A DNA stretch of 27,758 nucleotides from a virus (lineage: Duplodnaviria; Caudoviricetes), in IMG/VR virus record IMGVR_UViG_3300005805_006186, positions 1 through 27,758 of that record; one strand, given 5' to 3'. The notes under the pieces were generated by a model that saw only the letters and a list, made by a program, of their open reading frames with translations, searched no databases and was not told the DNA's origin. Positions 2,768 through 8,549 of the stretch are shown here, in pieces (position 1 is the first letter of the stretch; the number at the start of each line of letters is the position of its first letter). The translations under genes were made by a program, and so were the position numbers.

Positions 2768-3019
2768 ATGATTACAGTTAGATGTAAAGAGTGTGGTGTT
2801 GAGCTTTCAAGTCACCCATCAAAAACAAAGTGCTGCGGTTGTCCAAATATGACAACTGTTAGGGGAGAAACCATTACAGCTATCGATCTTTCAAAGGTTA
2901 TTATGGTTTCTAATGATAATCAATCTAAAAAATCAACAATCTTTTCTAATGAAGATCTGGCATATCAGAATGCTCGTAGGAATAGAAAAGTTCGTAAGTT
3001 GGATTTTGAAATTAGATAG
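2768..3019 (+). CDS. Small Cys-rich putative Zn-binding protein
   Basis: CKEC...CCGCPN; basic C-terminus. Confidence 0.75.
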   Translation: MITVRCKECGVELSSHPSKTKCCGCPNMTTVRGETITAIDLSKVIMVSNDNQSKKSTIFSNEDLAYQNARRNRKVRKLDFEIR

Positions 3020-3620
3020 GTCTTAAAATACAGTTTTCATCATATCGAGCATATTGAAATCCATCATCTTGTAATTGCCCAAATCCAAATTTGCTGGCAA
3101 CAAGTGATCTTTGTCTTTGTCCAATCATTAAAGAATATTCATTAAATCCTTCGTTAATTTTTGGACCATAAGGCTTTGCGACTAAAATATCTCCAGGTCT
3201 TGGTGAAAGTTTTACCATACCTTTTTCTAGATTTTCATAGGTATATTTCATAAAGTGGTAAAATATTTTTTTTCTATCTTCCAGTGAAAATTCATTTGGT
3301 TGCTTTGTGTATTTGACTTCGTAACCAACTTCAGCAACCCTGGTTTTTTCGTCAAAATGTATTCTTTCGGCAAGTGATTTAATTCTTTGTTCTAGATCTG
3401 GTGAATTATATTGATCTTCAAATTCCAAATATAGGTAACTCTTTTTTGTTTGATACAGTATAATAAAGGTATAAATTGCCATTGCTCCATCGGAGCATTT
3501 AAAATTTACTTGTTGATATCTCTTTTCTTCCTTTGGATATACTGGTAATCTATCTTTATACCCAAGTTTTTTAAGGAGTCTTTCAAAGGTAATTCTTTTT
3601 TCTGATGGGATTATATTCAC
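3012..3620 (-). CDS. Hypothetical protein (202 aa); the only convincing minus-strand gene
   Basis: Long ORF with no competing + strand ORF; GTG start; divergent from tRNA-Ser. Confidence 0.75.
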   Translation of the reverse strand: MNIIPSEKRITFERLLKKLGYKDRLPVYPKEEKRYQQVNFKCSDGAMAIYTFIILYQTKKSYLYLEFEDQYNSPDLEQRIKSLAERIHFDEKTRVAEVGYEVKYTKQPNEFSLEDRKKIFYHFMKYTYENLEKGMVKLSPRPGDILVAKPYGPKINEGFNEYSLMIGQRQRSLVASKFGFGQLQDDGFQYARYDENCILRPI

Positions 3621-3651
3621 TTGACAAAATCGAATACATATACTATATTAT
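3621..3651 (+). promoter_or_regulatory. sigma70-type promoter of tRNA-Ser (possibly bidirectional)
   Basis: TTGACA 3621-3626, 17 bp, TATATT 3644-3649. A TATAAT is also present on the minus strand facing the divergent ORF. Confidence 0.7.
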
Positions 3652-3764: not shown

Positions 3765-3840
3765 TTTAATAATCTCTTAAACACTTTCTTGAAATCAACA
3801 CATAGTTGACATTCTTTAGATGCTCACTAGCATAACTAGT
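3765..3840 (+). promoter_or_regulatory. Putative promoter of the talC-zwf-gnd-ptox operon
   Basis: TTGACA 3806-3811 with TAGCAT 3828-3833 (16 bp). Flanked by short inverted repeats and YTTAA-like direct repeats at 3765 and 3776. Confidence 0.5.
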
Positions 3841-3861
3841 AGTATCATAAGGAAAGAACCT

Positions 3862-4011
3862 ATGGATCAGCACACCTATGATAATTGGGTGAAGATCAAG
3901 GAGACCTTCGAACAGTCTGGCAATACAGATAATATGTTTTACAAAAGAGCAGTGGCAATTGTAAAAACAAGAAAAGATCCACTGGCAAAGTTTCTTGGAG
4001 ATGAGAAGTGA
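3862..4011 (+). CDS. Small hypothetical protein (49 aa; start revised to ATG 3862)
   Basis: AAGGAAAG SD before MDQHTYDNWVKIKETFEQSGNTDNMFYKRAVAIV... Resembles a small protein type seen in cyanophages and picocyanobacteria (recalled). Confidence 0.8.
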   Translation: MDQHTYDNWVKIKETFEQSGNTDNMFYKRAVAIVKTRKDPLAKFLGDEK

Positions 4012-4211
4012 TGGAACCTCAAGATGAGTTAGTAAGTCGTGCTGAAGTTCAGGAGATGATCGATGCAGCTATCAGAAAACACAACCGTAATGCTTCTATC
4101 ATTAGTATGTGCGTCGGTTGGGTGGTTCTTGCTTTATTTGCTGAGGGACTTTTAAGACTTATTGGAGTAATTCCTCCTGTACTACCATGGCTCAACATTA
4201 CCCTGAAATAA
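4008..4211 (+). CDS. Small membrane protein (67 aa)
   Basis: GTGA overlap with the previous gene; hydrophobic segment ASIISMCVGWVVLALFAEGLLRLIGVIPP. Confidence 0.8.
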   Translation: MMEPQDELVSRAEVQEMIDAAIRKHNRNASIISMCVGWVVLALFAEGLLRLIGVIPPVLPWLNITLK

Positions 4212-4366
4212 TAGGAATTGTTTTCCTGCTAGTATTTGCTGCTACGATGTTTTATCAAGGCACTTGTATTATGAGGGGTCAACGTGGTTATTCTCTTCGT
4301 GATTATTTAAAACAAGACAGTACAAATATGCGTAAAAGGGTAGAAGAACTACTCAAAGATAAATGA
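4187..4366 (+). CDS. Small single-TM protein (59 aa; not in ORF track)
   Basis: MAQHYPEIIGIVFLLVFAATMFYQGTCIMRGQRGYSLRDYLKQDSTNMRKRVEELLKDK*. Fills the gap and has an ATGA overlap with the next ORF. Confidence 0.7.
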   Translation: MAQHYPEIIGIVFLLVFAATMFYQGTCIMRGQRGYSLRDYLKQDSTNMRKRVEELLKDK

Positions 4367-4470
4367 TAACCGACCAAGATTTGCAACAACTACAAGAAAT
4401 GGTTTTACGTCAAAAAATGGATGAATTATTTGAAGAACCATCTACTTATGAGGACGAAGAAGATGACTAA
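4363..4470 (+). CDS. Small acidic protein (35 aa; not in ORF track)
   Basis: MITDQDLQQLQEMVLRQKMDELFEEPSTYEDEEDD*. Overlaps both neighbours. Confidence 0.65.
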   Translation: MITDQDLQQLQEMVLRQKMDELFEEPSTYEDEEDD

Positions 4471-4549
4471 AACATTTATATCATCAATTTTACTTTTTAG
4501 TTCAATCGGATCTTTTATTTACTGGGGATTACATAACGCATATCCATAA
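4463..4549 (+). CDS. ndhQ: 28-aa single-TM microprotein similar to NDH-1L subunit NdhQ
   Basis: MTKTFISSILLFSSIGSFIYWGLHNAYP* aligns without gaps to the TM/C-terminal part of T. elongatus NdhQ as recalled (ISAVLILGFIAGLIWWALHTAYA). GAGGA SD upstream. Confidence 0.6.
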   Translation: MTKTFISSILLFSSIGSFIYWGLHNAYP

Positions 4550-4561
4550 GGGGAGAGACAA

Positions 4562-5224
4562 ATGAAGATTTTTTTAGACACAGCCGATGTTTCTTTTATT
4601 CAACCAGCCTATGAGACGGGGTTAATTGATGGAGTCACTACAAACCCATCACTCATTCTCAAAAGCGGTAGACAACTTCTAGAAGTTATTCAAGAACTTT
4701 CTAAGTTTGAGAACTTACAAAGTATCTCTGCAGAAGTTGTTGCAGAAACCGCAGAAGAAATGCTTTCAGAAGCAAAGAAGTTTTATTCTATTACACCTGC
4801 AGTTACTATCAAGGTTCCTTGCACGGTAGAAGGACTTAAGGCTTGTAAGTTCCTTTCAGATAATGGAATTCAAACCAATGTAACTTTGGTGTTCTCGGTT
4901 GCACAAGCAATTCTTGCATCCAAAGCAGGTGCAACATTCATCTCTCCTTTTGTTGGAAGATGGATGGATAACTCAATTGATGGTGTTGAGATCGTCAAAA
5001 ACATTCGTAAAGCATTTGACTACTCTGGAACATCCACTCAGATTCTTGCGGCATCTATTCGTGATGTGAGACAAGTAGAACAATCCGCACTCAATGGTGC
5101 AGATGTTGTTACCATCCCACCAGTTGTTTTCTGGGGAATGTATAAGAATATTCTGACCGATAAGGGTCTGGATTTATTTCAGAAGGACTGGGAAGAAGTA
5201 TTGAATTCTGTTAAAGACAAGTGA
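4562..5224 (+). CDS. talC: Transaldolase TalC (MipB/FSA-type short form)
   Basis: FLDTAD, GVTTNPS, IKVP Schiff-base Lys, NVTLVFS, ISPFVGR, ILAASIR. Confidence 0.97.
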   Translation: MKIFLDTADVSFIQPAYETGLIDGVTTNPSLILKSGRQLLEVIQELSKFENLQSISAEVVAETAEEMLSEAKKFYSITPAVTIKVPCTVEGLKACKFLSDNGIQTNVTLVFSVAQAILASKAGATFISPFVGRWMDNSIDGVEIVKNIRKAFDYSGTSTQILAASIRDVRQVEQSALNGADVVTIPPVVFWGMYKNILTDKGLDLFQKDWEEVLNSVKDK

Positions 5225-6552
5225 AAAACATCGTAATCTTTGGTGCGACAGGAGATCTGTGCCGCAGAAAACTCATACCAGCACTCTATACTCTTCATAA
5301 GAAAACTCTTTTACCAAAGGACTTGAAGATTATCGGTGCGTCCAGGACTCAACACTCTAAGGAGAGTTGGGTAGAAGTTCTTGGTAGTTATTCCCAAGAA
5401 TTTATCAAACGACTTGAATATGTTCCTTGTGATTTGAGTGATTCTGAATCTCTTAAATTACTGGAATCTTATGAAGATACAACTTATTTTCTTTCTGTTC
5501 CACCAGAAAGATATGCTGATGCAATTACAAACCTCAAAGAAGCAGGTAAGTTAGATGATGCAGAAAAATCAAGAGTCATTATTGAGAAGCCTTTTGGCAC
5601 CGATCTTCAATCTGCTAATCATTTACAATCTGTGGTGGCTGGATATTTACGCGAGAAACAAGTATATCGCATTGACCATTATCTTGGTAAAGATACTGTT
5701 AATAACATCCTTGCCACCCGCTTTAGTAATATACTTCTGGAGCCACTCTGGAACAGAAACTTCATAGAAGAGATTCAGATTTTTGCTACCGAAACCATCG
5801 GTTGTGAAGGTCGTGCCCAGTATTATGACACCGCTGGTGCCGTGAGAGATATGCTTCAGAACCATATGCTTCAGGTGCTTGCACTGATTGCTATGGAACC
5901 ACCTTGCAAAAATGATGCTAAGGAGATTCGTAGAGAAAAAGTCAAAGTTCTTGCTGCGACAAGACTCGGTGATAATGTAGTTCTTGGACAATATGATGGA
6001 TATAAGAATGAAGATGGTGTAAATCCAGATTCACAAACACCAACTTTTGTTGCTGGTGAATTGTATGTTGATAACTGGAGATGGAAGGGTGTCCCATTTC
6101 ACTTTATGACTGGTAAGAAAATGCCAGTTGGTTGTGTAGAGGTTGTGATTAAATTTAAAGCACCACCACAACAACTTTTTGATGGTCACGATTGTAATGA
6201 CCGAATTGTAATGAGACTGCAACCAGATCCACATTTGGATATGCGTATTGATATTAAGTCTCCTGGACTTAATGATATGGTGGAACCAGCAATTCTTCAG
6301 TATCATTATCCAGTAGAGAAAGCGATTGATGGTTATGTGAAACTCTTTTATGATGCCATCAATGAAGATCAGTCACACTTTGTCCATGCAGATGAAGTGT
6401 TGGAGTCTTGGAGAATTGTTGATGATCTCCTTTGCACTGGGGATCAATGCCGCATTATGACCCTTCCGTATCGTTATGATGAAGGGGTTTGGGGACCACT
6501 AACTAAGACAGAACTGATTACAAAGTGGGATTACCCACTCAAACTTAAGTAG
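5221..6552 (+). CDS. zwf: Glucose-6-phosphate 1-dehydrogenase
   Basis: GATGDL, EKPFG, YRIDHYLGK, RDMLQNH, RWKGVPF. Confidence 0.98.
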   Translation: MKNIVIFGATGDLCRRKLIPALYTLHKKTLLPKDLKIIGASRTQHSKESWVEVLGSYSQEFIKRLEYVPCDLSDSESLKLLESYEDTTYFLSVPPERYADAITNLKEAGKLDDAEKSRVIIEKPFGTDLQSANHLQSVVAGYLREKQVYRIDHYLGKDTVNNILATRFSNILLEPLWNRNFIEEIQIFATETIGCEGRAQYYDTAGAVRDMLQNHMLQVLALIAMEPPCKNDAKEIRREKVKVLAATRLGDNVVLGQYDGYKNEDGVNPDSQTPTFVAGELYVDNWRWKGVPFHFMTGKKMPVGCVEVVIKFKAPPQQLFDGHDCNDRIVMRLQPDPHLDMRIDIKSPGLNDMVEPAILQYHYPVEKAIDGYVKLFYDAINEDQSHFVHADEVLESWRIVDDLLCTGDQCRIMTLPYRYDEGVWGPLTKTELITKWDYPLKLK

Positions 6553-6561
6553 GAGAAAGGT

Positions 6562-7599
6562 ATGAAAGTAGGACTTATCGGACTCGGAAGAATGGGCGAA
6601 GGGATGTCTCGCCGTATGAGAAAAAGGGGGGACATTGAAGTCTGGGGTTATCGGAGGAATTATGCAAAAGCACAGGAAGCATATGAAAAGGGATATGTGG
6701 ATGGAGTTGCAACTACTATTGAAAATCTTGTTAAAGTAGTTAAACAAAAGAAAAATGGTGGAACTGGTCCTGGTATTTTCCAGATGGTTGTACCTGCTGA
6801 AACCGTAGAGGAGACGATCAATGAGTTATTACGATATTGTGGTGAAGGAGATATTATTATTGATCATGGCAATAGCAATTTTAAAGACAGTCGGAAAAGG
6901 GCAGAGCGGTTGGCAAAACTTGGTATCCAATATATTGATTGCGGTACTAGCGGTGGCGTTTATGGTATGGATCGTGGATACTGTCTTATGGTTGGTGGCG
7001 GAGATACTGCGGTCGCCACTTGTTCGCGCATTTTTGATGCCCTCTCCCCAGGAATTGACGCTGCCCCCAGGACTCAATTTGACTCAGAGTTAACATCCGC
7101 AGAGTTTGGTTGGTTACATTGTGGTGGACCAGGAGCTGGTCACTTTGTAAAGATGGTTCACAATGGAATTGAGTATGGTATAATGCAGGCATATGCCGAA
7201 GGTTTTAACATTCTCCACGAAGCAAACGCTGGTGCCAAGTATGTCAAAGAAGGAGATGCTGAGGTTGCTCCAATGGCAGACCCAGAAAGTTATTGCTATG
7301 ATATTGACGTTGCTGAGGTGGCTGAGTTATGGCGTCGCGGTAGCGTTGTTGGGTCTTGGTTATTGGATCTTACTGCTGATGTGTTACGCGGGGATAGTGA
7401 GCTTAAACGCTTCTCTGGTGGGGTATCCGATAGTGGTGAGGGTCGTTGGACTGTTTCTGCCGCTGTGGATTTGGGTGTACCCGCTCCTGTTATTACTACT
7501 GCCCTTTATGAAAGATTTAATTCACGCGGTCTTGGTGCTTTCGCGTCCAAGGTGTTAAATGGTATGAGATTTATGTTTGGTGGACATCACGTTAGATAA
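6562..7599 (+). CDS. gnd: 6-phosphogluconate dehydrogenase (decarboxylating, short form)
   Basis: GLGRMG, IDHGNS, GTSGG, GAGHFVKMVHNGIEYG, DSGEGRW, MRFMFGGH. Confidence 0.98.
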   Translation: MKVGLIGLGRMGEGMSRRMRKRGDIEVWGYRRNYAKAQEAYEKGYVDGVATTIENLVKVVKQKKNGGTGPGIFQMVVPAETVEETINELLRYCGEGDIIIDHGNSNFKDSRKRAERLAKLGIQYIDCGTSGGVYGMDRGYCLMVGGGDTAVATCSRIFDALSPGIDAAPRTQFDSELTSAEFGWLHCGGPGAGHFVKMVHNGIEYGIMQAYAEGFNILHEANAGAKYVKEGDAEVAPMADPESYCYDIDVAEVAELWRRGSVVGSWLLDLTADVLRGDSELKRFSGGVSDSGEGRWTVSAAVDLGVPAPVITTALYERFNSRGLGAFASKVLNGMRFMFGGHHVR

Positions 7600-7610
7600 G
7601 GAGATTGACA

Positions 7611-7778
7611 ATGGAACGATTTAGAGGTTTTTCAGATTATGAACTGAAACTATTGGCAGATGCAGTATGGGTAAGACAAAGGCACCATATTGCTGGAGAT
7701 CGGAAGTTTAAAGATTATGGAGCAATTCTTGATGAGTTACAAAGACTAGTGGATTATCAACCAGGGGTATTCCTATGA
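7611..7778 (+). CDS. Small hypothetical protein (55 aa; not in ORF track)
   Basis: AGGAG SD; MERFRGFSDYELKLLADAVWVRQRHHIAGDRKFKDYGAILDELQRLVDYQPGVFL*; ATGA overlap with ptox. Confidence 0.75.
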   Translation: MERFRGFSDYELKLLADAVWVRQRHHIAGDRKFKDYGAILDELQRLVDYQPGVFL

Positions 7779-8275
7779 AAAAATTCAATGATGTGATGCT
7801 GTGGATTACGGTAGCAATCATTGACTTTCTTTATCAAAATGCACCAATACAACGTTTTTGGGTTCTGGAAACAATTGCCAGAGCACCATACTTTGCTTTC
7901 GTCAGTGTATTGCATCTCAAAGAATCACTAGGATTGCGAGACTTATCACACTACTACTTAATGAAAGAACACTTTGCACAAACACTCAATGAAACGGAAC
8001 ACCTTATTGAAATGGAGCATCGTGGCGGAGCAGATCGCTGGGTTGATCGCTTTTTCGCTTATCATTTGGTTCTCGTCTATTATTGGGTTCTGGTGGCTTA
8101 TTATTTTATTGATCCTATTTCTGCTTATCACTTGAATGCTTCTATTGAATACCATGCCACAGAAACTTATTTGGAATATCTTTGGGAGCATCCAGAAGAT
8201 AAAAAAATTTCAGAAATTGCCGTGGATGAAATGAATCACTATATAGAACTTACTAGAGCAATGGAGATGGTTTGA
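7775..8275 (+). CDS. ptoX: Plastoquinol terminal oxidase (AOX/PTOX di-iron family)
   Basis: RFWVLETIARAPY, NETEHL, IEYHA..TY and DEMNH di-iron ligand motifs. Confidence 0.95.
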   Translation: MKKFNDVMLWITVAIIDFLYQNAPIQRFWVLETIARAPYFAFVSVLHLKESLGLRDLSHYYLMKEHFAQTLNETEHLIEMEHRGGADRWVDRFFAYHLVLVYYWVLVAYYFIDPISAYHLNASIEYHATETYLEYLWEHPEDKKISEIAVDEMNHYIELTRAMEMV

Positions 8276-8397
8276 TGTTATTGGCAAAAATACTTTTATT
8301 TGTTTCAGTTCCTTTCGTATTAGCAACTCTATATTTTGGAACTCGTGGTGGATATTATGATTCGGAAGACTATAAAGGAAACGGAACTGCACACTAA
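8275..8397 (+). CDS. ndhP: NDH-1L small subunit NdhP homolog (40 aa; not in ORF track)
   Basis: MLLAKILLFVSVPFVLATLYFGTRGGYYDSEDYKGNGTAH*: a single TM followed by FGT-R-x-G-[FY]-YD...Y-x-GNG-[ST]-AH, the NdhP C-terminal signature. TGATG coupling to ptox. Confidence 0.88.
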   Translation: MLLAKILLFVSVPFVLATLYFGTRGGYYDSEDYKGNGTAH

Positions 8398-8549
8398 TGG
8401 GACATTTCGCACGATGGGTTTTAGAAAATCCTGTTACACTGGGTATTCTTGGATATGCTTTGATTGTTATACCTATTATGGGAATCTGGGCAATTCACAA
8501 ATATAATTGGCAACATTGGGAACCATTTGATAGGGGACATAAGGAGTAA
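8397..8549 (+). CDS. Small single-TM protein (50 aa; not in ORF track)
   Basis: MGHFARWVLENPVTLGILGYALIVIPIMGIWAIHKYNWQHWEPFDRGHKE*; TAATG coupling on both sides. Confidence 0.75.
   Translation: MGHFARWVLENPVTLGILGYALIVIPIMGIWAIHKYNWQHWEPFDRGHKE

Follow-up and report, generated by a model that had tools for sequence, protein, structure and literature searches.

Does a 28-codon open reading frame lying directly upstream of talC in a viral genome encode a phage copy of NdhQ, a small subunit of the cyanobacterial NDH-1L complex, and, if so, would such a short copy serve the host complex or interfere with it? The question is raised by a virus record of 27,758 bases (hereafter the window, i.e. 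the whole stretch of DNA analyzed). A first-pass annotation, made from the letters alone, had aligned the peptide without gaps to a segment of T. elongatus NdhQ, noted that most of the host N-terminal extension is missing, and proposed either a minimal functional copy or a competitive modifier of NDH-1L.

Genomic context of the locus

The window contains what we take to be pstS, dps, tRNAs, talC, zwf, gnd, ptox, hli and sugar-nucleotide genes, partly named by recognition, and its closest cultured relatives over positions 3800-5300 are the Kyanoviridae DSL-LC03, S-SRM01 and DSL-LC02 from lake and reservoir water. This gene set and these relatives identify the virus as a T4-like cyanophage with freshwater picocyanobacteria as its likely hosts. 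The ndhQ-like gene shares one co-directional run with talC, zwf, gnd, ptox and ndhP (Table 1), and in 99 of 118 loci no marker on its upstream side is closer than the acidic ORF in front of it. Both sigma-70-like promoters listed are consensus matches only, from a search that returned 33 matches versus 18.8 expected from shuffles; for the T4 late promoter core, 22 matches were obtained versus 38.6 expected, which is uninformative. Three small membrane ORFs of the same run (phrog_1096, phrog_1953 and phrog_1184) are conserved and co-travel with the ndhQ-like gene.

Table 1. Coordinates of the features discussed; positions refer to the window unless a locus handle is given.
Feature	Position	Strand	Remarks
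202-aa ORF	3012..3620	-	without family match; same position in 16/118 ndhQ-bearing loci
Sigma-70-like promoter match, second	3621..3649		11/12
Sigma-70-like promoter match	3806..3833	+	10/12; ahead of the gene run
Small membrane ORF	4008..4211		phrog_1096
Small membrane ORF	4187..4366		phrog_1953
35-aa acidic ORF	4363..4470	+	phrog_2505, E 0.0019; usual marker upstream of the ndhQ-like gene
Shine-Dalgarno-like GAGGA	4450..4454	+	8 nt ahead of the ndhQ-like ATG
ndhQ-like gene, 28 aa	4463..4549	+	single hydrophobic helix and C-terminal W-G-L-x-[HN]-A-Y-P motif
talC, transaldolase	4562..5224	+	begins 12 nt past the ndhQ-like stop
zwf	5221..6552	+	presumably oxidative pentose phosphate, named by recognition of the translation; zwf and gnd span 5221..7599
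gnd	6562..7599	+	presumably oxidative pentose phosphate, named by recognition of the translation
PTOX, plastoquinol terminal oxidase	7775..8275	+	phrog_4235, E 2.9e-76; Pfam AOX, E 9.9e-14
ndhP, 40 aa, other one-helix NDH-1L subunit	8275..8397	+	PDB 6KHI_P, E 2.6e-9
Small membrane ORF	8397..8549		phrog_1184
Second NdhQ-like gene, picocyanobacterial	L289:1444-1575
Second NdhQ-like gene, picocyanobacterial	L305:948-1079
Second NdhQ-like gene, picocyanobacterial	L309:887-1012
Second NdhQ-like gene, picocyanobacterial	L306:955-1080
Second NdhQ-like gene, picocyanobacterial	L308:901-1026

A conserved 28-codon gene under purifying selection

The ORF encodes MTKTFISSILLFSSIGSFIYWGLHNAYP, followed by TAA. 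The ATG and the stop of the 35-aa ORF in front of it overlap by 8 nt, which likely reflects translational coupling, and 70 of 83 distinct family genes are preceded by a Shine-Dalgarno-like word (a count made without a shuffled control). A longer frame of 42 codons starting at position 4421 was rejected, since the frame is open for anything between 1 and 35 residues ahead of the family start, this stretch runs into the preceding gene, and the extra part is not conserved across the family.

Relatives were collected from 160 viral loci retrieved via two upstream neighbors, the peptide itself not being used, and from three cultured-phage regions; together with the window this gives 164 sources, some contigs being present twice. 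The gene was found in 119 of these sources as 80 distinct proteins of 28-33 aa, and in all 119 the ATG lies 19-22 residues ahead of an invariant Trp. When loci having an identical 400-nt stretch in common are grouped, 77 of the 100 neighbor-anchored groups carry the gene, some of the remaining loci stopping short of the slot. A direct scan detected relatives in 467 IMG/VR stretches. Relatives' contigs from three RNA runs (X2, X3 and X5) cover parts of the gene and are possibly of DNA origin; these runs contain only small shares of the window stretch.

Over 83 distinct 75-nt cores (pairs not independent) dN/dS is 0.31-0.39 overall; it is 0.49-0.70 for the N-terminal and 0.18-0.20 for the C-terminal half, and lowest, at 0.09-0.14, from W to Y. 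Each of the five alternative frames is interrupted by stops in 45-83 of the 83 sequences, and W, A and Y are invariant in 83/83 phage cores as well as in both host sets described below. The 28-codon ORF is a real, conserved protein-coding gene under purifying selection; conservation among related phages and dN/dS, both named by the first-pass annotation as tests of its proposal, speak in its favor.

Homology to NdhQ

In a single-sequence search of the PDB, the best matches are the NdhQ chains 6KHI_Q (E 0.023) and 6L7O_Q (E 0.033), aligned without gaps between query residues 5-27 and chain residues 22-44, and the other three of five matches at E<=10 are reaction-centre L chains (E 0.17-0.18). 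Taken alone this match is marginal, and it is the family evidence that lifts the likeness to NdhQ above chance. A profile of 71 phage sequences run against the PDB returned three sequences at E<=10, all of them NdhQ. The same profile finds NdhQ in 141 of 301 genomes from the class of a picocyanobacterium (once in 136 and twice in 5) and has no match in 120 control genomes belonging to the same family as a MAG titled Polynucleobacter, a further genome being unscored. Among 51 host matches inspected, 25 are canonical NdhQ with a long arm, 21 are short picocyanobacterial forms and 5 are second copies. One canonical host copy equals the printed 6KHI_Q segment exactly, and the window peptide has 10 of 23 identities with the identical segment of this genome-derived NdhQ, so that the T. 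elongatus segment used in the first-pass annotation and its gap-free count proved correct. A short picocyanobacterial form in turn matches 6KHI_Q at E 2.6e-5.

The relation also holds in the reverse direction. A canonical profile built from 16 of the 25 copies has its best match at the locus also found by the phage profile in three of five picocyanobacterial genomes; in the other two nothing was found by either the canonical or the phage profile. Of 199 phage segments, 195 are picked up by host-only profiles at E<=0.01, no other segment passing that threshold (33,121 segments in all), and hhalign gives probabilities of 97.7% against canonical NdhQ, 98.3% against the short forms (17 of 21 used) and 0.4% for an NdhP control, figures that are partly circular since the host sets were first obtained via the phage profile. 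This circularity does not touch the PDB matches or the absence of false hits. Judged from these reciprocal and specific profile relations, the phage gene is a homolog of NdhQ, and the search against cyanobacterial NdhQ proposed as a check led to that family.

The alternative that a small membrane peptide of other origin resembles NdhQ by chance, or that the ORF is spurious, could appeal to the marginal single PDB match and to the lack of a Pfam, PHROG or NCBIfam family or an ESM Atlas NdhQ cluster (see below), and is very improbable and largely refuted in view of purifying selection, the fixed position of the start, the stops in all five alternative frames (45-83/83), reciprocal profile matches and clean controls.

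Two MAGs titled Salipiger and Sphingobacterium (L184, L170; G307, G309) have both ndhP and ndhQ matches. Both had been retrieved by ndhP; as they seem to be cyanobacterial or of mixed content and may carry wrong titles, they were excluded from the controls.

Annotation status

No matching family was found for the 28-aa peptide in Pfam and PHROGs, or for the 71 family members in NCBIfam and PHROGs. The ESM Atlas returned only sub-0.9 matches to unrelated small membrane proteins and no NdhQ cluster. One large protein search yielded 57 matches and another 44, mostly relatives of 27-37 aa, with no named NdhQ, and none of the 31 matches inspected is canonical NdhQ. Using tblastn, neither the 28-aa peptide nor host NdhQ found a match in cultured phages; the filter and the length defeat tblastn, while the profile finds five. 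In all five named phage records checked, no CDS is called for the gene.

The first-pass annotation knew of no listing of NdhQ among cyanophage auxiliary metabolic genes, and in agreement with this we found no phage NdhQ in the mostly open-access literature searched; the only mention of NdhQ found in cyanophage literature is a reference title, and the available part of the paper on phage S-SCSM2R (PMC12801897) contains no occurrence of ndhQ. The gene is a virus-borne homolog of a host-metabolism gene kept under selection (dN/dS <1), and it occurs in the IMG/VR stretches and in five named phages. Cyanophage ndhP, ndhI and ndhD are NDH-1 auxiliary metabolic genes already in print (PMC10452541, PMC12801897), and an unannotated cyanophage ndhQ is an addition to this known theme and not a new theme.

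N-terminal trimming and origin

Three forms of NdhQ can be compared. Canonical NdhQ, as in chain Q of Thermosynechococcus NDH-1L (6KHI, 6L7O, 6HUM), shares with the phage peptide one helix, the W-x-L-x-x-A-Y end and the pattern of conserved columns, and differs by its length of 45 aa and by an arm with the motif NRG[IL]M, present in 16/16 canonical, 0/17 picocyanobacterial and 0/72 phage copies. The picocyanobacterial form (~37-50 aa, e.g. in Synechococcus sp. ATX 2A4 and MIT S9451) resembles the phage peptide in its gap-free helix, its W-G-L-x-[NH]-A-Y-P end and the absence of the NRG[IL]M motif, with 14-16 identities to the window peptide in 24 positions for the three compared; WG occurs in 66/72 phage, 17/17 picocyanobacterial and 3/16 canonical copies, and Pro after AY in 65/72, 16/17 and 1/16, respectively. 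It differs in having an N-terminal stub of 8-10 residues or longer with a D/E-S-P/T cap (canonical 15/16, picocyanobacterial 15/17, phage 0/72), an invariant Gly-rich helix, and a GC-rich chromosomal gene. Its flanking genes, both present in 17/17 loci, are presumably thiE-like and ribF-like, as named by recognition.

The number of residues before the Trp is 36-37 in canonical, a median of 28 (27-40) in picocyanobacterial and a median of 20 (19-22) in phage copies. Since the picocyanobacterial orthologs are also without the arm, it does not characterize NdhQ in general; most of its loss took place in the host lineage, and the phage form is trimmed by ~8 residues further. The earlier statement that the phage peptide lacks most of the host N-terminal extension therefore applies to NdhQ of the Thermosynechococcus type only, and fails for the already armless NdhQ of the likely hosts. 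As most of the arm loss is a host-lineage trait, the idea of a competitive modifier is weakened and that of a minimal functional copy is favored.

Many picocyanobacterial loci (L266, L267, L275, L276 and others) have a second in-frame Met directly past the cap, which would give a product of 29-30 aa, the length of the phage form. In five proteins (P0039, P0042, P0043, P0057 and P0072; 56-74 aa), the N-terminal part of the 67-aa upstream gene (phrog_1096) is fused to the NdhQ-like helix as a replacement N-terminal extension.

By best score, 27 of 72 phage copies are nearer to canonical NdhQ and 44 to the picocyanobacterial form. A tree over 24 columns, too few to single out a donor of ndhQ, was built from 38 host sequences, 24 sampled phage copies and two marine ones; in it the picocyanobacterial clade (support 98) stands beside the phage copies, which are not nested inside it. 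Five picocyanobacterial genomes have a second NdhQ-like gene of one of two types away from the thiE/ribF locus (Table 1). In the short tree, one type falls among phage sequences (support 84), possibly as a return transfer from phage.

Helix face, topology and the predicted NdhD1 contact

The peptide has one hydrophobic stretch and is predicted to form a single transmembrane helix. Its best 19-residue mean hydropathy (KD19) is 1.62, compared with a phage family mean of 1.91 and values of 2.34 and 2.57 for the host sets. Helix conservation in the phage family peaks at 100 degrees, and the conserved face lies at 119 degrees in phage, 131 in picocyanobacterial and 74 in canonical NdhQ (canonical peak at 125). 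Column variability tracks that of canonical NdhQ (rho 0.61, p 0.002; 0.59 for the helix alone). Basic residues are found in the N-flank of 40/72 copies versus 4/72 for the C-flank, and because of this bias an N-in topology is suggested, in which the N-terminus would be cytoplasmic and the W-G-L-x-[HN]-A-Y-P end lumenal. We infer that the conserved helix face is the one that binds NdhD1.

The AlphaFold-Multimer type of check proposed in the first-pass annotation was carried out with a phage homolog of 30 aa (89% identity to the window peptide) and a construct from Synechococcus ATX 2A4, residues 1-500, called NdhD1 because its gene adjoins ndhF1. The support is weak, 0.50 versus 0.00 for the best of three controls, and may reflect likeness to the solved NDH-1L. 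Partner pLDDT is at least 79, and 100% of contacts are shared between runs. The mark used was reached by 116/157 solved and 2/215 mismatched pairs, and scores of 0.60 or less within these comprise 18/157 solved pairs and both mismatches.

Association with ndhP

In the window, ndhP begins in overlap with the ptox stop, 3.7 kb from the ndhQ-like gene. It is likewise a phage copy of a small NDH-1L subunit that co-occurs with ndhQ here, and differs from it by an unrelated sequence (hhalign 0.4%) and by being full length rather than trimmed. In seven locus groups, ndhP stands directly behind the ndhQ-like gene with a gap of 4-5 nt. An obligatory ndhQ-ndhP module was nevertheless rejected: among the 100 neighbor-anchored groups, whose flanks are limited, 28 have both genes, 49 ndhQ only, 13 ndhP only and 10 neither, and ndhP was not found in the complete ndhQ-bearing phages DSL-LC03, S-SRM01 and DSL-LC02. 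The profiles detect ndhQ in two of 14 ndhP-bearing cultured phages, S-SCSM2R and ACG-2014f, in a first pass that can miss distant short genes. In S-SCSM2R, which was cultured on WH7803, the ndhQ-like gene lies just before talC, as in the window.

Often a conserved membrane ORF of ~43 aa with a Gly-rich tail stands between phrog_2505 and the ndhQ-like gene (L009, L030, L064, L095 and others, also S-SCSM2R at L366:1364-1495); its last codons contain a strong Shine-Dalgarno sequence for ndhQ, and it is absent from the window. By tblastn, ndhP homologs occur in 384 cultured phage records, mostly hypothetical or uncalled among the 60 matches listed. The available text on S-SCSM2R (PMC12801897) names ndhD and ndhP and terms ndhP uncommon in cyanophages, against which these 384 records stand.

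Proposed role and alternatives

In the structural reports, NdhP and NdhQ lie on opposite sides of NdhD1, in contact with NdhF1, lipids and carotene (PMC6992706, PMC7021789); the literature describes them as sandwiching NdhD1 and stabilizing its link to NdhB, thereby preventing conversion of NDH-1L to NDH-1M. Loss of either subunit is reported to convert about half of NDH-1L to NDH-1M and to lower cyclic flow (PMC11794437), and both belong to NDH-1L/-1L' and not to the CO2-uptake forms (PMC9283085). For infection, PMC5082946 proposes that electrons arrive via NDH or go straight to plastoquinone, with PTOX as the outlet.

With a probability of roughly two in three, we interpret the phage peptide as a minimal working NdhQ that keeps NDH-1L assembled during infection. 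The trimmed homolog would insert into the host thylakoid, occupy the NdhQ site on NdhD1 with its helix and lumenal motif alone, as predicted, and top up host NdhQ while host expression fails. If NDH-1L were thus kept assembled, ferredoxin-to-plastoquinone flow and proton pumping could persist and provide ATP for phage replication, while PTOX would serve as outlet for electrons and the pentose phosphate genes as source of NADPH and ribose. Counted for this interpretation are the homology to NdhQ, the conserved C-terminal motif and helix face, the weak support from docking with NdhD1, the presence of ndhP in the window and the host role of NdhQ; counted against it are the missing cap, the loosely constrained N-terminal half, the lower hydrophobicity, the lack of an obligatory ndhP partner, the position of the phage copies outside the picocyanobacterial clade and the 27/72 copies nearer to canonical NdhQ.

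The other half of the original proposal, a competitive modifier, is now the less favored of the two, and we consider it unlikely. Here a capless peptide would bind the NdhQ site, displace host NdhQ and alter the complex, either loosening NDH-1L or moving the shared NDH-1M module between NDH-1L and the CO2-uptake forms. The cap is indeed absent from 72/72 phage copies and kept in most host copies, selection is concentrated in the C-terminal half, phages retain the ndhQ-like gene without ndhP, and the weak NdhD1 docking score fits equally. However, the canonical arm is already gone in the likely hosts, which leaves a phage loss of only ~8 residues, many picocyanobacterial copies have the second Met that would yield a phage-like product of 29-30 aa, and co-travel with ptox, pentose phosphate genes and an untrimmed ndhP agrees with a supporting role in electron flow. 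A more speculative scheme, to which we likewise assign a low probability, is a switch in which capless NdhQ would occupy the host NdhQ site on NdhD1 and, jointly with phage NdhP and PTOX, draw the shared NDH-1M core from the CO2-uptake complexes to an NDH-1L-plastoquinone-PTOX route; one of the extra NdhQ-like genes in marine Synechococcus would then have come back from phage. If true, carbon concentration would be traded for ATP.

It is highly unlikely that the gene is a repurposed NdhQ descendant with another membrane partner, such as NdhD2 or a phage membrane microprotein of the same cluster. Its setting among several small membrane ORFs, its independence of ndhP and the drifting N-terminal half of the helix would suit such a change of partner, but the host-invariant Trp, Ala and Tyr are the phage-invariant residues, the conserved helix face is the same, and docking with NdhD1 gives weak support.

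Implications

Missed by annotation pipelines, the gene is added to the cyanophage photosynthesis toolkit. The carriage of both one-helix NDH-1L subunits by some phages points to NDH-1L stability as a phage target, and the natural truncation series of 45, ~38 and 28 aa defines a minimal NdhQ. With a single 28-aa peptide, the infection model of cyclic flow to PTOX becomes testable.
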